Numbered from the stretch's first letter, positions 51,763 through 58,201 are shown. The stretch is 64,000 nt of DNA from Patescibacteria group bacterium (GCA_023382875.1 JAHDXH010000002.1:69724-133723), one strand, 5' to 3'. Numbers and translations: made by a program. The notes: a model not told the origin generated them from the letters alone.

Positions 51763-51848
51763 CGCCGCGGTGGTGAAATGGTAGACACGCGAGACTTAAA
51801 ATCTCGTGATAGCAATATCATGCGGGTTCGAGTCCCGCCTGCGGCACC
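51763..51848 (+). tRNA. tRNA-Leu (anticodon TAA), CCA encoded
   Basis: Cloverleaf folds. 7-bp acceptor GCCGCGG/CTGCGGC with one G-T wobble. Anticodon loop CTTAAAA. Long variable arm. T-arm GCGGGTTCGAGTCCCGC. Confidence 0.9.
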
Positions 51849-51905
51849 AGTGAGAAGTTAGAGATTAAAAATTGAATTATAGCCAGCCAAATTTTTGGCA
51901 AAGAT

Positions 51906-51979
51906 CGGGGAATAGCTCAGATGGCTAGAGCGCGCGGTTTGGGACCGCGAGGCCGCAGGTTCGAGCCCTGTTTCCCCGA
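51906..51979 (+). tRNA. tRNA-Pro (anticodon TGG)
   Basis: Acceptor CGGGGAA/TTCCCCG, anticodon stem CGCGG/CCGCG with loop TTTGGGA, T-arm GCAGGTTCGAGCCCTGT. No encoded CCA. Confidence 0.9.
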
Positions 51980-51987
51980 CATAATAA

Positions 51988-52013
51988 AGAATCCAGCATT
52001 GCTGGATTTTTTA
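51988..52013 (+). terminator. intrinsic terminator after tRNA-Pro (stem ATCCAGC/GCTGGAT + T6)
   Basis: Hairpin at 51991-52007 followed by TTTTTT. Confidence 0.7.
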
Positions 52014-52117
52014 TTATCTTGGAGATAATTGTGAAAACCTTTGGTTCTGCCGGCGAGCGAGACTGGTGGCTTTGTTGCTTTGGAATCACGAAGCGCCCGC
52101 CTAATCCTTGGAAAGGG

Positions 52118-52139
52118 GAGCCCTGTTTCCCCGACATAA
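52118..52139 (+). repeat. direct repeat of tRNA-Pro(TGG) 3' end (GAGCCCTGTTTCCCCGACATAA), 155 bp downstream of the intact copy; att-like scar
   Basis: 22/22 nt identical to 51963-51984. Like the original, the copy is followed by its own hairpin and T-run. Confidence 0.8.
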
Positions 52140-52145
52140 AAAAAG

Positions 52146-52168
52146 ACAGCCTTAGGGCTGTTTTTTTA
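52146..52168 (+). terminator. second hairpin + T7 terminator following the tRNA 3' repeat
   Basis: ACAGCC-TTAG-GGCTGT followed by TTTTTTT. Confidence 0.6.
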
Positions 52169-52247
52169 TTTCTCTAGCAAAAACCTCCGCATTTGAGGGC
52201 GGAGGTTTGCTTGTGCATCAGAGCAGAGCGTGTTTGGAAATTTTTGA

Positions 52248-53030
52248 TTAAAGGTCAGGTTGTTCGGCACGGCAGTTGCGCCAGACCGGTCCCAGCGCCG
52301 CCAGACCTTCAAATTCCGTGTAGCTGGTTGAGTTGCCTACCCGAATTTGGACGGTGTAATGACCATCCATGCTGGCTTCCTGAGAAAGGGACTCACTGTT
52401 ACAGCCCAGATAGGTTGCCTGTAACATGAGGGTCGAGTGTGAGGTTTCGTATCCCGGGCCGGGAACCTCAAAAATTCTGGCAATTTTAGTGTTGCCATCA
52501 TAATTGCCCACAGCCACGTATCTATCACCCTCCCAGCGATTGCTGACGTACATGGTCGAAAATCCACCCGACTGCAACAATTCCAATTCGTCATTGGTAA
52601 TGTTGTAGGCATACAGCAGTGGATAATCGTCGGCAGTGCGAATGGCGGTAAAAACCATCCAGTCGCCCGAAATTGCGGCATTGGTGCAGACCACATCGCC
52701 TTGCTCACAGCGAGAGACGGTGTTGATTTCAAAGTCCGCATCGTCAAACTCCACCCAAGCGGCAATGCCGAGGGGGATGTTATTGCGAATGGGAACTTCG
52801 TCAACGATGATGAATGAAATATACATCCCATCAGCAGACCATGAGGGTGAAGTCGCGTTCTCTTCAAGGTCGCTGGTGACATTGAGGGTAGTTTGGCTTT
52901 GCGCTTCAACTGCCAAAATTTCACCGCTATCTTCTACGAGAAACCACGAGGGTCGAGTGTCACCGGCTTGCGCCAGTGACCCTCCAGCCAGCAGGCTGAA
53001 GAACAGGGTCAAAAAGAACAGGCGTTTCAT
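52248..53030 (-). CDS. secreted protein with PD40/TolB-like beta-propeller repeats; high-GC (~52%) island gene
   Basis: Signal peptide MKRLFFLTLFFSLLAGGSLAQA. Repeated SPSWSADGMYISF, ISGDWMVFTA and VAVGNYDGNTKIA motifs resemble PD40 blades. GC is clearly above the roughly 40% flanks. Confidence 0.45.
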   Translation of the reverse strand: MKRLFFLTLFFSLLAGGSLAQAGDTRPSWFLVEDSGEILAVEAQSQTTLNVTSDLEENATSPSWSADGMYISFIIVDEVPIRNNIPLGIAAWVEFDDADFEINTVSRCEQGDVVCTNAAISGDWMVFTAIRTADDYPLLYAYNITNDELELLQSGGFSTMYVSNRWEGDRYVAVGNYDGNTKIARIFEVPGPGYETSHSTLMLQATYLGCNSESLSQEASMDGHYTVQIRVGNSTSYTEFEGLAALGPVWRNCRAEQPDL

Positions 53031-53262
53031 AGCTTTAGGTCTCCTTGCTTAACCAATTAGCTCTACCGAATCTTTAAGTTCGGACTAATAAAAACACCAA
53101 AAAATGTTCTTATTAGTCCAAACTAAGTTATCGGCTCTGATGTTAATGTGCCTGCGAACATAAAGTTTCGCAGACCCTAACTATAACAGAAAAAAGACTA
53201 AATGTAAAGTTATAGGACGTATAATATCTGAACTTTTAAATAAATTGACTGGTAGATTTTCC

Positions 53263-53290
53263 TTGACTCATGGCAGTTTTATCCTATAAT
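53263..53290 (+). promoter_or_regulatory. near-consensus sigma70-type promoter TTGACT-16 nt-TATAAT driving the 53324 gene
   Basis: TTGACT at 53263-53268 and TATAAT at 53285-53290, with a second TTGACT at 53245-53250. Confidence 0.5.
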
Positions 53291-53323
53291 TACCTGTCCG
53301 CAAAATAGCAGAGGAGTAAGCTC

Positions 53324-53683
53324 TTGGAAATAAAAGGTACGATTGCGTTAATCGTTGACCCTCAGGATTCTTTGTTCTGGGGTGGCTGGATGGAGCATTT
53401 GCGCGAAGATGGTTGGGAAATCGCCATGTTCAAGCACCCGTCATGGATTCAGCCTGATTCAACCTCGCCGTTGCCCGAAGGGGTGATGGAAGCTAACGTG
53501 CTGATGGTGTATGGTCTGGGTGTGCAAGATTGGTGGGTTGAGGCGCTAACTGCTGCCAATAAGCCAACCGTCTATATCACTTCCATTGGTACGCCGAACC
53601 TGAAGCTCGATAAGCTGGCAGTGGTCGATGGCTTCTTCCGCTATGAGGAACTGTTGGCGGCAGTGGAGAAAGTTGCCGCCTAA
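53324..53683 (+). CDS. hypothetical protein (119 aa), high GC (~52%), no recognisable motifs
   Basis: ORF preceded by a strong promoter and followed by a bidirectional terminator. The IALIVDP N-terminus hints at a flavodoxin/receiver-like fold, but the diagnostic residues are not evident. Confidence 0.4.
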   Translation: MEIKGTIALIVDPQDSLFWGGWMEHLREDGWEIAMFKHPSWIQPDSTSPLPEGVMEANVLMVYGLGVQDWWVEALTAANKPTVYITSIGTPNLKLDKLAVVDGFFRYEELLAAVEKVAA

Positions 53684-53696
53684 CAATCACAGAAAA

Positions 53697-53725
53697 ACGA
53701 CAGGGTTCAAAGCCTGTCGTTTTTG
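53697..53725. terminator. bidirectional intrinsic terminator (stem ACGACAGG/CCTGTCGT) between convergent 53324 gene and eamA
   Basis: 8-bp stem with an 8-nt loop. T-run on the plus strand and an A-run on the 5' side that gives a U-run for the minus strand. Confidence 0.7.
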
Positions 53726-54598
53726 CTAGAGCGCGGTTGTGATAATTCCACAGACAGTGAGAATAATGCCTAAACCTTGAACTTTGTTAATTTTTTCGCT
53801 GGAAAAAACCATCGCTAAGCCGACAGTAACAATTGTGAGTGCTGAGGCAATTGGAGTGACGATAATGCCATCGCCATAAGCTTGGCCAAAGCTAGCACTT
53901 AGTACACCAATCGCTTCAAAAATACCAACTGCAGCGATCAAAGCCACAAGTTTTTTATTTGGTTTGCTGATGCTTAAAGATTGTTTTCTAAATTTGGCAA
54001 TTAAAAAAACAACGCCAATAGCGACGAGCTTAACCAAAAAACTGACCAAAATCCAATCGGTTTGTTCAACAATGAATTCATTAACTGGCCAGTAAAAAAT
54101 GCCAAAAATTACTGCAGCGATGAGAGTTTCTTTGACTCCAGTTAAAAGAGCTAGACTGCCTTTTTTCAAATCAATAAAGTTGACGCTGACTAGCAAAATG
54201 CCGAACAAAAGCAGAGCAATGGCGGGAACTTGCAATCTTGATAATTCTTGACCTCTAATGAAAAAAGAAATGGCGATCACAAATAAAACTTGAATATTGA
54301 TTGTCGCGGAGATAACAGAAACATTACCGATTTCAAAGCCTTTATAAAAAAATAAGTAGCCAACTGCATACATAATTCCACAAAAGACAGTCAGGGCCAA
54401 AAGTGGAGCGGAGATAGCGAAGCTACCAGAAACAAAAAACAAGAAAAAGCCCATTAAAAATAAGCCCGCTATTTGGGACCAAAAAAGGGTTTTGTTGTGA
54501 CCAACTTTTTCTGAAGCAGCATTGGCAAAGAAATCAGAAGTTCCCCAACCAACCATGCCGCCCAAGCCACTTAAAATGCTGAGTAAGGTTTTATCCAT
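53726..54598 (-). CDS. EamA/DMT-superfamily transporter (10 TM)
   Basis: Two EamA-like halves (GMVGWGTSDFFANAASEK...; ...GVLSASFGQAYGDG). Confidence 0.7.
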   Translation of the reverse strand: MDKTLLSILSGLGGMVGWGTSDFFANAASEKVGHNKTLFWSQIAGLFLMGFFLFFVSGSFAISAPLLALTVFCGIMYAVGYLFFYKGFEIGNVSVISATINIQVLFVIAISFFIRGQELSRLQVPAIALLLFGILLVSVNFIDLKKGSLALLTGVKETLIAAVIFGIFYWPVNEFIVEQTDWILVSFLVKLVAIGVVFLIAKFRKQSLSISKPNKKLVALIAAVGIFEAIGVLSASFGQAYGDGIIVTPIASALTIVTVGLAMVFSSEKINKVQGLGIILTVCGIITTAL

Positions 54599-54659
54599 AT
54601 TTAAATCTAACTAAGTTAGTTTAACAGATGTTTAATCATGTTAAACTAGATTTATCATT

Positions 54660-55781
54660 ATGTTCAACGAAGCACTTCCACTACCACATCATGAGTCACC
54701 AAAATTACCAAAAGTGCCAGAGGGTCACGTGGAGCTAGAACAACTCAAAGAATTACTGGAAGAACATCGAGAGGAATTGGCGCAATTAGTGGAAAGATCT
54801 AATACTTCGCCATATTTACCACAAGGAGAAAGCGGTCTGGTTGGGGAAGTAAAATTTGTGGTGGATAAAAGATTGGGCAAACAGCAGCCAGTAAGAATTA
54901 TTTCGCTAACTTTTCCTAATGGCAGTACTGCTGAGGTAGTGATGAGACCAACTCAAAGACATTTTTCTGAGTATCAAGAAAAATATGAGGCAGTTAAAAA
55001 ATATTTTCCACAACTGCTTTTGAGTTTGCCTGCACCTGATGGCGATGAGGTTTTATTTTTAGAAAAAATTACAGGTTTGGAACAAAAAACTGATGAAGCT
55101 GGTTGGTATGAATATGTTGGCCATGGTGAAAATTTCAGAAAAACTAATAGTGACTTCTTTAGAATCATGGATGAGGTTTTGGAAGCTCCACTTATTTTGA
55201 ATGATATCCAACCGCAGGAAGGTCATAATGTTTTTTTGAATTCAAAAACTGGAGAAATACAACTTTTTGATGTAGATACTTTGCTTCCATCTGATGAAAG
55301 CCATGAGTGGAAATTTATTGTTTGTGTAGGAGGCATGATTAGCTCAAGTCCTTTTGAAGGTCAATCAAATTTTAAATTGGCTTTTCAATTTGAATTGCTA
55401 AGACAATATTTGGAGAAATACTCTGAAGCTGTTTTTGAAAAAGTAGAAGAACCTCGAACTTTGCGAAGATTGGTTTATCTTAATCCAGATGATGAAATTG
55501 AAAACCCCGATCAATACTTGCGAATTTTAAAGCCAACTGACGGTGACTATGGAAATGTTTTTCGTCAATATTCTGCTGGGGGCACCAGAATGTGGAAGGT
55601 AATGAATTTCGGCAAACCATTGCCAGTAATTGCTGAGCTGCAAATGTTTTCTCGTAAAAAAATGAGATTGCGATCAGACATTAGACAAGCTGTGGAAAAT
55701 GGAGACTTTGTTGGTTTTAGAAATTGCTTGCAAAAAAATATTCAAATCATTGAAGAAGTAGAAGAGAAGGTTGAGCGCTAA
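54660..55781 (+). CDS. hypothetical protein; possible atypical protein-kinase-like fold
   Basis: LILNDIQPQEGHNVFLNSKTGEIQLFDVDT resembles an HxD..N catalytic loop followed by a DFG-like DVD. No Gly-rich loop is identifiable. Confidence 0.3.
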   Translation: MFNEALPLPHHESPKLPKVPEGHVELEQLKELLEEHREELAQLVERSNTSPYLPQGESGLVGEVKFVVDKRLGKQQPVRIISLTFPNGSTAEVVMRPTQRHFSEYQEKYEAVKKYFPQLLLSLPAPDGDEVLFLEKITGLEQKTDEAGWYEYVGHGENFRKTNSDFFRIMDEVLEAPLILNDIQPQEGHNVFLNSKTGEIQLFDVDTLLPSDESHEWKFIVCVGGMISSSPFEGQSNFKLAFQFELLRQYLEKYSEAVFEKVEEPRTLRRLVYLNPDDEIENPDQYLRILKPTDGDYGNVFRQYSAGGTRMWKVMNFGKPLPVIAELQMFSRKKMRLRSDIRQAVENGDFVGFRNCLQKNIQIIEEVEEKVER

Positions 55782-57431
55782 TTAAATTTTCTCTGCGTCT
55801 TTGGTATCGATCAGTTGTTGTGGTGTCATGAAGTAGAGATCGATCATTTTTTGCTTTTGTTCTTCGGTAAGATTTTGTAGTTTTTCTGTTCTGACCATGA
55901 TTTTGGTTTCGCGACCATCAAGTCTCTTGAGTCTTGTATATTCGCGGTCAAGTTTGGGTTTAATAGCTTCATGGAAGCCATTTTCAGAATCGGGATCGAA
56001 CAACACATAAGTTGGCGGATTATTCATGAGCATGGTTTGATAATTAGCTCTAATTTCTGGAGAACGCCACGCCCAAGGAAGATGGAAAAGTTCTTTTCCA
56101 GCAATCGGAACGTCGGCAATGATGTTGATATAGCCAGCGCCATCAGGTCCGGTTAGTAAGGTGTCAGTTGGTTCTTTGAGAACTTTAATAATGTCGGCGG
56201 TAGATTGGAAATCTCCGTAACCGATGAAGTGTTCTTCTAATTTATTTTTCTTTTCCAAAATCCACGGCGAAATTTGACCAATCAAAATTACAGGAATGAT
56301 GAAATAAATTAACATCAGCCAAGTTTTTTTGGATTTCGACCATGACCAAAGTAAGAATTGAGCAATCAACATTCCCCACGCAGCAATGAATGGGTAAAGG
56401 TGAAAGCCGGTATAGAACATGGTGGGAAAGACGAAGACACGATTGTTGAGACTTAAAACTAAGATAAAAAGTAAAAGCCATTTTGACCAGTCACTCAATT
56501 TGCTTTTGTTTGATTTGAGAGCAAAAATTACGCCCAAAACAATTAAAACATTTTGCCAAATAAAGAATTTACCCAAGCTGGTTTCAGCATGAAGGAAGGC
56601 TTGGAAAGGGTAAGTATAAGCAGTGAAGCTGTCTTGCCAAGTTTTGGCACCATGAATATCGACCACATATTTCATGACATTGCGGATACTTTCTTTGTAC
56701 CAGCCAATGGGAGAAACAATAATAAAGACGAATGATAATAAAATAATGTAAGTAGAAGCTAGAGAAATCTTTTGTTCTTTGTCTGAATACCAGGCATAAG
56801 CTAATCCAGAAATAAAAACATATGGCCAAAGCGGTGAGAGTGACATAGTGATCCAAGCTGAAGCTAGGGCAAAAAGTGCTGGATCGACCCAGGATAATTT
56901 CTTTTTTAACCCCAAGTGGTCATCGCTTTTTTGTTTAAAGATTTTTTCAATCAAAAGCCCAAGACTAAGGGCTAGGGCGGGAGCGGCTAAAGTTTCGCCT
57001 AATAAATACCAACCAAAGAATAGGTAAGAGGTACTTGCCAAAATCGCTGAGACAAATAGTCCTCGCCATCTAAATCTCCACGTCAAAACAAAAAGCCAGC
57101 TGGCCATCAAAATAAATAAAGCGACTCTAATTCTCTCTACCAATAAAAATAGAGTGTTGTAAGGAATGAGTTTGGTAATGAGGGCGCCAAGTAAAAATGG
57201 CAAGGGCTGATGATTGACTGACAGATCAGTATAGAGACCTTTATTGTATTTCCACATCATCCAGCCATTGGTGAGATGGTCGGTTTCGTCTTGGAAGTAC
57301 CACGACTGACTATGTTTCTTGAGTCCATAAAAAGTCACCGCCAAAATAACTGCCAAAACAGCGAGGGGTAAAAAATAGCTAATGATTTGGCGTAGTGAAA
57401 ACTTGCCAAATAAAATTGGACGGTCAAACAT
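55782..57431 (-). CDS. GT-C fold membrane glycosyltransferase (ArnT/PMT-like, GT39/GT83-like)
   Basis: About 12 TM helices. First-loop motif FQDETDHLTNGWMMW resembles the DE..H/Y acidic motif of GT-C enzymes. Large C-terminal periplasmic domain. Confidence 0.55.
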   Translation of the reverse strand: MFDRPILFGKFSLRQIISYFLPLAVLAVILAVTFYGLKKHSQSWYFQDETDHLTNGWMMWKYNKGLYTDLSVNHQPLPFLLGALITKLIPYNTLFLLVERIRVALFILMASWLFVLTWRFRWRGLFVSAILASTSYLFFGWYLLGETLAAPALALSLGLLIEKIFKQKSDDHLGLKKKLSWVDPALFALASAWITMSLSPLWPYVFISGLAYAWYSDKEQKISLASTYIILLSFVFIIVSPIGWYKESIRNVMKYVVDIHGAKTWQDSFTAYTYPFQAFLHAETSLGKFFIWQNVLIVLGVIFALKSNKSKLSDWSKWLLLFILVLSLNNRVFVFPTMFYTGFHLYPFIAAWGMLIAQFLLWSWSKSKKTWLMLIYFIIPVILIGQISPWILEKKNKLEEHFIGYGDFQSTADIIKVLKEPTDTLLTGPDGAGYINIIADVPIAGKELFHLPWAWRSPEIRANYQTMLMNNPPTYVLFDPDSENGFHEAIKPKLDREYTRLKRLDGRETKIMVRTEKLQNLTEEQKQKMIDLYFMTPQQLIDTKDAEKI

Positions 57432-57839
57432 TTATCGAGTTGTCTGTAGTTTGTAATGTTCTTTTTTCATGCACTCATCCATGATTACAATCATGCCTGC
57501 TTGCTCGGCTTTGGCTTTTGCTTCTGGTGCAATCACGCCTTCCTGAAGCCAGAGGATGGGTTTGATGTTGAGACTTAAAATTTCATCAACAATTTCCATG
57601 ACGGCTTCTGGTTGACGAAAAACATCAATAATGTCAATTTCTTCTGGGTTGGGAATTTGGGAAAGGCTGGCAAAAGCGGTAAGACCAAAAACTTCTTTGA
57701 TCATGGGATTAACGGGGATAATTTCAAAACCATTTTCCATTAAGTATTTGGATACACCGTGACTGGGTCGAATCGGATTATCAGAAAGACCAATGACGGC
57801 AATTCTTTTGGGAGGGTTCAAAATTTCGGCTTTCGTCAT
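57432..57839 (-). CDS. CoA-binding domain protein (YccU/COG1832 family)
   Basis: IAVIGLSDNPIRPSHGVSKYLMENGFEIIPVNP is the Rossmann CoA-binding motif. Start chosen at MTKAEIL; the ORF track extends to 57893. Confidence 0.7.
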   Translation of the reverse strand: MTKAEILNPPKRIAVIGLSDNPIRPSHGVSKYLMENGFEIIPVNPMIKEVFGLTAFASLSQIPNPEEIDIIDVFRQPEAVMEIVDEILSLNIKPILWLQEGVIAPEAKAKAEQAGMIVIMDECMKKEHYKLQTTR

Positions 57840-57950
57840 GCTGACATTTAAGCAAAAAAGCGAGGTAAGGGCAACCAGACAATAGAAGTTCAATTTTTCG
57901 AGGAGTAAAATAGCAATTTGTTGATGGATATTCTTTGAAGAATGATTAAA

Positions 57951-58023
57951 CGGAGTATAGCGCAGATGGTAGCGCGCAGCGTTCGGGACGCTGAGGCCAT
58001 CGGTTCGAGTCCGATTACTCCGA
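57951..58023 (+). tRNA. tRNA-Pro (anticodon CGG)
   Basis: Acceptor CGGAGTA/TACTCCG, anticodon stem CAGCG/CGCTG with loop TTCGGGA, T-arm ATCGGTTCGAGTCCGAT. Confidence 0.9.
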
Positions 58024-58057
58024 CAAAATTTGCCAAACTTTTTTTTATTTTAAAGCT

Positions 58058-58066
58058 TGGTATAAT
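58058..58066 (+). promoter_or_regulatory. extended -10 promoter TGGTATAAT, 13 nt upstream of tRNA-Gly
   Basis: Identical element and spacing as upstream of tRNA-Leu. Confidence 0.5.
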
Positions 58067-58078
58067 CTAATTCATCTT

Positions 58079-58150
58079 GCGGGTGTAGCTCAACGGTCAG
58101 AGCTCCAGTTTTCCAAACTGGTGACGAGGGTTCGACTCCCTTCACCCGCT
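58079..58150 (+). tRNA. tRNA-Gly (anticodon TCC)
   Basis: Acceptor GCGGGTG/CACCCGC, anticodon stem CCAGT/ACTGG with loop TTTCCAA, T-arm GAGGGTTCGACTCCCTT. Confidence 0.9.
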
Positions 58151-58201
58151 CCCAAACTGATCGATTTGCGCAATATTTCCAACAATTTAAAATGAAATTA
58201 T

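Follow-up and report, generated by a model that had tools for sequence, protein, structure and literature searches.

A conserved structured element with a tRNA 3'-end tail beside a GC-rich gene pair at a tRNA-Pro locus of a Patescibacteria group bacterium

Duplication of a tRNA 3' end from a start within the T-loop is the classic footprint of an integrase, and the sublocation of attachment (att) sites in tRNA genes was reportedly treated by Williams in Nucleic Acids Research in 2002. Here, a duplication of this kind is analyzed in a 64-kb stretch of DNA from a Patescibacteria group bacterium (GCA_023382875.1, JAHDXH010000002.1:69724-133723; "the window," to whose positions all coordinates refer), in which the 3' end of tRNA-Pro(TGG) recurs shortly downstream of the gene and is followed by an islet of two GC-rich genes, p260 and p119. 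Comparison of the window with other contigs (L003-L052) reveals that the second copy of the repeat is the tail of a conserved structured element that is found behind several different tRNA genes, each time with a tail that fits the tRNA beside it, and that probably has nothing to do with the arrival of the islet. The part of the locus that holds the repeat and the element is organized as follows.

51764..51849, plus strand: tRNA-Leu(TAA), the first of a tRNA pair (ARAGORN; Rfam tRNA model, 60.4 bits)
51906..51979, plus strand: tRNA-Pro(TGG), CCA not encoded (ARAGORN; Rfam tRNA model, 63.7 bits)
51963..51984, plus strand: repeat copy 1, made up of T-loop G57, the 3' strand of the T-stem, the 3' strand of the acceptor, the discriminator and 5 nt of trailer, with the T-loop TTC just 5' of it
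51985..52015: terminator hairpin 1 (AATCCAGCATTGCTGGATT), stem 51990-52008, with an A-run upstream and a T-run to 52015
52014..52138, plus strand: conserved structured element of about 125 nt, the sole match in the window to R1, the covariance model of the element (123.8 bits)
52118..52139, plus strand: repeat copy 2, the 3' tail of the element, the same as the tRNA-Pro 3' end and starting 1 nt past helix P3
52140..52167: terminator hairpin 2 (GACAGCCTTAGGGCTGTC), bidirectional, with a T-run

The repeated sequence, GAGCCCTGTTTCCCCGACATAA, is found at exactly two sites in the 64 kb, 51963-51984 and 52118-52139, and at no further site when up to 3 mismatches are allowed; none of 100 shuffles yielded two matches. 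The copies are spaced 155 bp apart and enclose 133 bp, and the identity between them reaches 25 of 26 nt. The 74-nt sequence of tRNA-Pro(TGG) itself is unchanged in L003, L008, L011, L014, L040, and L045. A preliminary description of this DNA, made from the sequence alone, had reported the exact repeat, a hairpin and T-run after each copy (51990-52015 and 52140-52167), a near-consensus TTGACT-16-TATAAT promoter ahead of p119 (located at 53263-53290), and a bidirectional terminator shared by p119 and the neighboring eamA gene (53693-53724). All of these are present, and its observations are correct in every detail that could be checked.

The element starts some 35 nt past tRNA-Pro on the plus strand. 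A first alignment of the spacer from the window, L008, L003, L012, and L013 contained invariant blocks and two compensatory pairs, and the structure tests were made on an alignment of 11 sequences (A5). Helix P1 is composed of an outer part (52052-52055 paired with 52098-52101) and an inner part (52057-52059 with 52094-52096) and encloses a variable hairpin, P2; a second conserved helix, P3 (52105-52109 with 52113-52117), carries a GGA loop and gives way to the tail at 52118. The invariant blocks are UUCUGCCG.C.AGCGAG and CGAAGCGC..G.C.AAU. Standard pairs occupy 99.2% of the P1 and P3 cells of the alignment, and 5 of the 12 pairs are compensatory. The observed covariation score and percentage of paired cells were reached by none of 500 shuffles, with slid controls scoring far lower, and the number of pairs changed on both sides was matched by 34 of 500; RNAalifold recovers the outer part of P1 and P3 independently. 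In P3 the variants CCCC/GGGG, ACCC/GGGU, ACUC/GAGU, CCUU/AAGG, and CCUC/GAGG are found, and its closing pair is U-G in six sequences and U-A in five. Because a U-G closing pair becomes an A-C mismatch on the opposite strand, the tRNA strand is favored. These tests show that the structure of the element is under selection, on the strand of the tRNA. A GGGGA/UCCCC mini-hairpin first seen in copy 2 has been replaced by the covariation-supported P3.

The element does not encode a protein, as no reading frame stays open in every copy and the spacing of the blocks varies from 42 to 45 nt; a small open reading frame (ORF) in the spacer (52019-52177, 52 aa) was rejected because its frame is not conserved. 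Nor does any Rfam family match the scaffold, whether from the window, from six loci, or in searches with 166 nt and 191 nt. The element is a conserved structured motif that is absent from Rfam. A degraded second tRNA gene, which the preliminary description had named as the alternative to an att duplication, would be another source for copy 2 and the spacer, as would a functionless stack of tRNA fragments left by old integrations. The scaffold does contain T-arm-like fragments (GGUUCUG, UAAUCC), and the P3 loop, its 3' strand, and the tail together resemble a whole T-arm (GGAGGGGAGAGUCCUGU vs GCAGGUUCGAGUCCUGU). However, neither ARAGORN nor the Rfam tRNA model gives anything in 51985-52145, and the compensatory changes and invariant blocks maintained across distant contigs indicate purifying selection on a fold that is not that of a tRNA, which leaves decay of this kind very improbable.

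A single pattern scan of Joint Genome Institute (JGI) metagenomes for TTCTGCCGNCNAGCGAG and CGAAGCGC separated by 20-45 nt returned eight contigs. In seven of the eight, an annotated tRNA gene on the same strand precedes the match by 60-80 nt, the tRNAs being Val(CAC), Pro(GGG), Pro(TGG) in three cases, Gly(CCC), and Val(GAC); the eighth, L042, is the L044 sequence again with its tRNA lost at the contig end. The other motif-bearing metagenome contigs are probably also from Patescibacteria. The order of parts is the same at every locus. Behind the tRNA comes a terminator-like hairpin and, after 10-45 variable nt, GGUUCUGCCGCCAAGCGAG; a variable hairpin then leads to CGAAGCGCGUGGCUAAU, and the 5-bp hairpin that follows, which has a GNA loop, is separated by a single nucleotide from a copy of the 3' end of the tRNA of that locus. 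In the window this copy matches over 22 of 22 nt, elsewhere over 9-20 nt, and the best match of the tail is its own neighboring tRNA in seven of seven loci. Identity begins right after TTC and, in the intact cases, ends 2-5 nt past the mature tRNA end; the match in L041 begins 5 nt later in the tRNA, again with TTC before it. Since the match runs into the trailer past the mature tRNA end, the identity is one at the level of DNA.

Only one unit is present per locus, never a tandem array, and the genes downstream of it are housekeeping genes that are unrelated from one locus to the next (an MFS transporter, a peptidase U32, a ComF-like PRTase, and DUF5660). No island is attached to the element at the loci of other tRNA species. 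In the clade of the window and in L039 the element holds an orthologous position, after tRNA-Leu(TAA) and tRNA-Pro(TGG), and R1 finds no match behind the identical or near-identical tRNA-Pro of the outgroups L045, L048, L049, L017, and L018, so that the distribution is patchy. The element thus occurs behind at least five tRNA species, with each tail fitting its own tRNA, and is present in some and absent from other close relatives.

Individual copies show further variation. In the near-identical assemblies L012 (7180-7200) and L013 (1262-1280), the same scaffold bears tails that differ from each other at two positions (GAGTCCTTTTTACCC vs GAGTTCTGTTTACCC); both have diverged from the tRNA, the tail evolving faster than the scaffold in that lineage. 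The copy behind tRNA-Val(CAC) in L037 (1225-1395) has an extra structured insertion of about 46 nt within the region of the P1 3' strand, and it adjoins a tmRNA gene (L037:54-485). A link to group I introns was also considered and rejected, as those found in Patescibacteria tRNA genes sit in the anticodon loop, where they are inserted at position 35/36 (mSystems 2026, PMC13011429).

Past terminator 2 lies the islet, bounded on its right by eamA.

52180..52210, minus strand: intrinsic terminator of p260 (CCTCCGC...GCGGAGG), kept in all relatives, including the islet-less L040
52248..53030, minus strand: p260, a signal peptide followed by a predicted all-beta, PD40-like propeller-type protein; GC 0.517, GC at third codon positions (GC3) 0.577
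53180..53290: divergent promoter-like region, with a minus-strand TTTACA-17-TATAGT for p260 and a plus-strand TTGACT-16-TATAAT for p119
53324..53683, plus strand: p119, a predicted stand-alone CheY-like (receiver-fold) protein; GC 0.519, GC3 0.605
53693..53724: bidirectional terminator common to p119 and eamA, with 15-nt arms that are 93% complementary
53726..54598, minus strand: eamA-family transporter of native composition (GC3 0.36), the right-hand anchor of the variable slot

The preliminary description read the duplication as the integration footprint of this islet, in which case the two copies would be attL and attR of an element that entered at tRNA-Pro and has since lost its integrase. 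The likeness to a tyrosine-integrase att duplication is real: the direct repeat has the integrase-type start in the T-loop and runs to a few nucleotides past the tRNA end, one relative carries an excision-like allele (L011), another has received a further 3-kb insertion at the same sequence (L008), and the islet is compositionally foreign and absent from outgroups. The islet, however, lies outside the repeat pair, a third copy that might bound it on the eamA side is missing at up to 3 mismatches, and duplication and islet assort independently. Both L014 and L015 carry p260 and lack the duplication, with tRNA-Pro, terminator 1, and the p260 terminator in direct succession, whereas L040 has the duplication and lacks the islet. 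In L011, which has p260, tRNA-Pro is followed directly by terminator 2, so that in one allele terminator 2 is the tRNA's own terminator. The L011 form is the product expected of recombination between the two copies, and the L014 form that expected of deletion between two TTTTTTATT runs. The hairpin on the eamA side, with its T-arm-like loop (GGTTCAAAGCC), is likewise present in the islet-less L040 and for that reason belongs to eamA rather than being an att remnant. Candidates for an attP on a phage or plasmid came down to two 17-mer matches on viral contigs, both within coding regions, with no tRNA, and attributable to chance; the scaffold block has no viral match, nothing in the phage collection, and only noise among plasmids.

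The occurrence of the same architecture behind other tRNA species without any island further implies that the duplication is part of a separate conserved element. Unlike an integrase att element, the sequence between the repeats amounts to only 133 bp, is free of genes, and keeps its short form from locus to locus, and its covariation is of the type produced by an RNA (or single-stranded) structure, not the pattern of a double-stranded protein-binding site. The earlier statement that no integrase or transposase is present is borne out by Pfam scans that covered eight neighboring ORFs and, of the 48 ORFs in the window with 150 aa or more, 43; of the five window ORFs outside these scans, three have precomputed Pfam hits, to CoA-binding, RRF, and peptidase M50. 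More broadly, no recombinase, TnpB, Cas12, IscB, or transposase is encoded next to the nine loci of the element or among the scanned window ORFs. We accordingly give scarcely any weight to integration of the islet between these two copies.

The insertion in L008, a relative 95% identical to the window, is AT-rich, spans L008:8905-11985, and sits exactly between the tail and terminator 2 (window 52139/52140); CCGACATAA and CCTACATAA flank it and form a direct repeat of 9 bp with a single mismatch. Its only gene encodes 906 aa, with a nuclease domain of the Mrr_cat family and an NTPase region of the nSTAND1/AAA type. The position of this insertion at the end of the tail shows that the tRNA-Pro 3'-end sequence serves as an insertion site in this population. 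The 906-aa gene looks like a defense gene, for which PADLOC gives only weak CARF-type hits, and no recombinase accompanies it. In other relatives the tail is followed by a conserved, AT-rich ORF of 110-113 aa (L003:8865-9197, L012:6839-7171, L013:908-1240, L011:3303-3644, and, truncated, L040:4200-4350), which lies on the tRNA strand with CCAATAAATTAAGTTATAAT just before it and has no Pfam or PADLOC match. The window, L008, and L014 do not have this ORF, and in L040 it has suffered an internal deletion.

The preliminary description had called p260 a secreted PD40-like beta-propeller protein, and part of this stands. A Sec-type signal peptide (MKRLFFLTLFFSLLAGGSLAQA) can be read from the sequence, and there is indirect support for a PD40-like fold: positions 33-75 of the profile of its family, a small one with members of 250-285 aa, match repeated blades in PD40 proteins, and a low-confidence model (predicted local distance difference test, pLDDT, 52) finds its best matches in the propellers of TolB and prolyl oligopeptidase (POP). 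A direct match to the PD40 family PF07676 was not obtained, as no Pfam family matches p260 at E <= 0.1 and none matches its full-length relatives P0014-P0020, and in contrast to the PD40 propellers of the TolB/POP type, p260 at 260 aa is short for a full propeller. For p119, which likewise has no Pfam match, including to PF00072, a confident model (pLDDT 89.7) has a CheY-like fold that matches receiver domains at a template-modeling (TM) score of about 0.6. The protein nevertheless differs from CheY-like receivers in having no output domain, no kinase partner nearby, and no evident phospho-acceptor Asp; strand 3 ends ..VLMVYGLG.. with no Asp evident there in sequence and model, compared without residue-level superposition. 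A role in a defense system was rejected for p260, p119, and the nearby p373 and p549, none of which has a PADLOC match.

In composition the two genes stand apart from everything around them. Their GC is the maximum of the window, whose mean is 0.398 (standard deviation 0.026, in 800-nt windows), and their GC3 lies about 5 standard deviations above the mean of 48 window ORFs (0.348 +/- 0.047), which places the shift at synonymous sites. The jump in GC over some 1.5 kb that had been described earlier therefore holds for the two ORFs, at about 0.52, but not for a uniform block, since the 293-nt spacer between them is AT-rich (GC 0.348). Homologues are few, with eight close clusters for p260 and five for p119 among 5.8 billion proteins; GCA_048499515.1 (contig JASNZT010000009.1) and a Logan assembly both encode the p260 protein, and homologues of the neighboring CTP-transferase/DUF359 gene are labeled as Patescibacteria, Microgenomates, Pacebacteria, or Levybacteria.

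The islet had been proposed as a horizontal acquisition, and the comparison with relatives bears this out in part. In L003, L008/L009, L010, L011, L012/L013, and L014/L015, p260 lies between tRNA-Pro(TGG) and eamA at a GC of 0.49-0.52, as compared with 0.37-0.40 in the flanks. The islet is not a recent one: neither its site nor its GC differs in eight close relatives, an observation that the preliminary description had itself named as contrary to its proposal, and the synonymous divergence (dS) of flanking genes between the window and the eight assemblies ranges from 0.06 to 1.7. Both genes are absent from the outgroups L045, L048, L049, L017, and L018, which retain the synteny of the region (CTP-transferase, MgsA, helicase, MazG-like, radical SAM, and the tRNA-Leu/tRNA-Pro pair). 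In L045, where the CTP-transferase has 71% identity and tRNA-Pro is identical, the slot between tRNA-Pro and eamA holds two unrelated small ORFs. L040, which differs from the window at about 15% of nucleotides, also lacks both genes. It keeps some 30 bp of their shared promoter (roughly 53198-53225) between the p260 terminator and the eamA terminator, and this remnant indicates that the pair was lost there through two deletions. The first 94 codons of p119 are lost in L008, L014, and L015.

Where it is present, p260 evolves under purifying selection (dN/dS 0.11-0.22), and its history differs from that of its neighbors. Between the window and L014 its dS is 1.11, as against 0.27-0.32 in the flanks, while between the window and L010 it is 0.57, as against 1.1-1.7. 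Two allele classes, which share about 65% identity, can be distinguished among p260 and its homologues in L003-L015, and the window and L014 carry different classes despite flanking genes that are 96-98% identical. This discordance in both directions, together with the two classes, points to exchange of p260 alleles between lineages. Positive selection was rejected as its cause, given the dN/dS values and an excess divergence that is mostly synonymous, and so was a diversity-generating retroelement, as no template repeat lies nearby and the divergence extends along the whole protein. A homologue with 55% identity to p260 in L004, from a genome of 45% GC, has a GC3 of 0.50 that is like that of its own neighbors, and this makes a GC-richer lineage, possibly other Patescibacteria, a plausible donor. 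The islet is probably an old horizontal acquisition, later partly lost; what does not stand of the original proposal is a recent date and a delimitation by the repeat. It is an islet of an ordinary kind. The L004 homologue is itself found in a tRNA-rich region, between a tRNA-Leu/Val pair and tRNA-Phe, and about 5 kb from it a large serine recombinase of 529 aa (L004:13343-14932) is encoded next to tRNA-Arg(TCG).

Variation in gene content continues beyond eamA. The p373 gene (window 54660-55781, 373 aa) has no Pfam or PADLOC match and the lowest GC3 of the window, 0.26. It is present in the window, L003, L010, and L011 and missing from L008, L012, L014, and L040, where p549 abuts eamA, and so constitutes a second presence/absence polymorphism within the same 6-kb stretch. 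In the outgroups L048 (4717-5835) and L049 (5083-5834), the interval between tRNA-Pro(TGG) and tRNA-Gly(TCC) contains only a CoA-binding gene; the same interval of the window (51980-58152) measures about 6 kb and contains the element, p260, p119, eamA, p373, p549, the CoA-binding gene, and tRNA-Pro(CGG). In the clade of the window, all of this interval is a growth zone.

To our knowledge, only one comparable arrangement has been recorded, the decades-old and unexplained RtT repeat of Escherichia coli. There the tyrT operon is followed by 178-bp repeats, each with the last 19 bp of tRNA-Tyr, and the function of RtT is said to be still poorly understood in a literature that runs from Egan and Landy in 1978 through Rossi et al. 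in 1981 to Bosl and Kersten in 1991. In the E. coli sequence NC_000913.3, the Rfam RtT family (RF00391, rttR) has four matches of 133-137 bits downstream of tyrT and tyrV, all of them units that close with AATCCTTCCCCCACCACCA, the 3' end of tRNA-Tyr. RtT and the element are alike in lying directly downstream of a tRNA gene on the same strand (here and at eight other loci), in being structured and mainly non-coding, and in forming a unit (about 130-180 nt for RtT) that ends in the same-sense 3' end of the upstream tRNA from the T-loop/T-stem onward. They differ in that RtT is a 3.14-fold tandem array in Enterobacteriaceae, whereas the element is a single unit with a terminator hairpin between it and the tRNA and is found behind several tRNA species on contigs that are probably from Patescibacteria. 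No similarity by which homology could be demonstrated was detected: RF00391 does not match the element at E <= 5-10 (window, six loci, 166-nt and 191-nt searches), R1 scores only 5.7 bits on RtT, and local alignments reach z <= 2.2 against shuffles. A deep homology based on the shared words AGCGAG, CGAAGCGCG, and UAAUCC was rejected, as the 9-mer is absent from the tyrT-tyrV unit and the scores are within the range of shuffles. In E. coli K-12 (L052:1567-1737, rttR/tpr), the spacer unit between tyrT and tyrV differs from the three distal units (GGTGAGGAGCGAAGCGACGAA vs GGCGAAGCGCGCAGCGCTGAG) in a GC-rich block that superficially resembles the Patescibacteria motif, which counsels caution about short shared words. 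RtT forms a closing helix that joins its 5' part to its tRNA-like tail, and for the element such a helix lacks specific support: the two ends pair in the minimum-energy folds of 5 of 11 sequences, but a locus's own tail ranks first in duplex energy only for L037. An acceptor-like pairing of a UUGGNGA leader with the tail was set aside because it is not specific to the own tail. RtT remains the closest known architecture, as an analogy only.

The E. coli precedent also lends itself to a purely local account, in which slippage or unequal crossing-over inside the tRNA operon duplicated the end of the tRNA and the resulting trailer has since been inherited vertically, not as a mobile unit, its RNA being a by-product of processing or a regulatory RNA. 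The tyrT/tyrV trailer has the same design, with units of about 178 nt that end in the tRNA-Tyr 3' end and are annotated as rttR, and the orthologous position of the element in the clade of the window and in L039 is what vertical descent would give. Nevertheless, near-identical scaffold blocks stand behind the anciently diverged tRNAs for Val, Gly, and Pro, from which it follows that the scaffold has moved between loci far more recently than these tRNAs diverged. The patchy distribution among relatives that share synteny, the invariable single unit where a tandem array might be expected, and the lack of any sequence or covariance-model similarity to RtT further reduce this account to an unlikely one, if one that deserves to be kept in view.

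A rather different possibility is that the element is a stand-alone guide RNA, a scaffold with a 3' guide as in a type V crRNA or a TnpB omega-RNA, that matches the TTC-flanked tRNA 3' end, and that an RNA-guided protein encoded elsewhere homes to tRNA genes or acts on them. The order of parts is suggestive, as the scaffold comes first and a match of 14-22 nt begins 1 nt past the last hairpin at every locus. The match also enters DNA trailer beyond the mature tRNA, and in L041, where it is shifted by 5 nt, TTC still precedes it. Variable cargo lies just past the tail, in the form of the 3-kb Mrr/STAND gene of L008 and the 110-aa gene of L003, L012, and L040. There is precedent in type V-K CRISPR transposons, which keep truncated repeat-spacer guides that match tRNA attachment-site genes (Hsieh and Peters 2021, bioRxiv 10.1101/2021.02.06.429022); such guides and TnpB omega-RNAs share with the element a structured scaffold, a short 3' match of 14-22 nt to a tRNA gene end, and a T-rich motif 5' of the matched site, and the type V-K guides, like the element, are encoded next to the tRNA that they match. 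Unlike those systems, however, the element is accompanied by no Cas12k, TnpB, or Tn7 genes, CRISPR repeat, or transposon ends, the nine loci and the scanned window ORFs being equally devoid of IscB, Cas12, and transposases, and no guide-RNA family of Rfam matches it. The TTC is that of the universal T-loop, so that L041 alone is informative about a possible target-adjacent motif. Several tails have decayed, and those of L012, L013, and L044 have mismatches or deletions that a guide would not tolerate, with their scaffolds intact; a terminator, moreover, separates the element from the only obvious source of transcription. In both of its parts, the RNA and the protein acting elsewhere, we consider this explanation improbable. 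For the more specific form, a free-standing and naturally programmed guide RNA whose scaffold is bound by a protein encoded elsewhere and whose tail directs it to the TTC-flanked tRNA 3' end, we see only a slim chance. If true, the guide would mark tRNA genes as safe sites for the insertion of cargo, as L008 hints, or would control the tRNA operon, and Patescibacteria would have an RNA-guided system in which the guide is separate from its effector.

The explanation that we favor, with moderate confidence, is that the variable slot downstream of tRNA-Pro(TGG) contains two distinct features as neighbors, the tRNA-tailed element and an old GC-rich acquisition. The element would be small and non-autonomous, with DNA-level recombination placing or copying it at the T-loop and 3' end of tRNA genes; its product would be a putative RNA from the trailer of the tRNA operon, in an architecture that seems analogous to that of the E. 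coli tyrT RtT repeat. The genes for p260 and p119 would have been acquired from a GC-richer donor, possibly other Patescibacteria, into the slot between tRNA-Pro and eamA in the ancestor of the clade, and would since have been reshaped by allele exchange and deletions without being delimited by the repeat.

Several points weigh against this two-part explanation. The distinct element sequences number 11, of which 5 come from one clade, and only one lineage, that of the window and L008, provides the two compensatory pairs of P1. No conserved promoter for the element is visible, and a terminator hairpin stands between it and the tRNA. The tails of L012, L013, L043, L044, L003, and L040 have drifted from their tRNA while the scaffolds remain intact, which means that tail identity is not strictly maintained. 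On the side of the islet, neither boundary repeats nor a donor has been identified, and loss of an ancestral pair in every outgroup could take the place of acquisition, although it is less parsimonious. The weak point is that no known mechanism cleanly explains how one scaffold could gain the 3' end of a new tRNA species with the tRNA itself unharmed; an attP of the integrase type would need to be re-specified for each tRNA. The gain of new tails is explained neither by a fixed attP nor by simple duplication, whereas a process like guide acquisition or gene conversion would explain it, and it is this failure that keeps the guide-RNA explanation alive.

For the interpretation of bacterial genomes, the locus illustrates a hazard in a common practice. 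Duplications of tRNA 3' ends are routinely read as integration scars that delimit islands, which at this locus would lead to the wrong island. What the duplication belongs to is a conserved, RNA-like element with no Rfam family, one that recurs behind different tRNA genes, and the model R1 offers a concrete means of testing for it across genomes. The islet, for its part, illustrates a small hot spot in which alleles of a secreted protein are swapped between strains and a high GC content is kept within an AT-rich genome. A design like that of RtT thus occurs in the reduced genomes of Patescibacteria with no homology that could be demonstrated, and this suggests that trailers which close with the 3' end of their own tRNA may be a functional solution that recurs, for instance in processing, decoying, or targeting, or alternatively that such elements may represent a widespread kind of tiny, tRNA-seeking mobile element.

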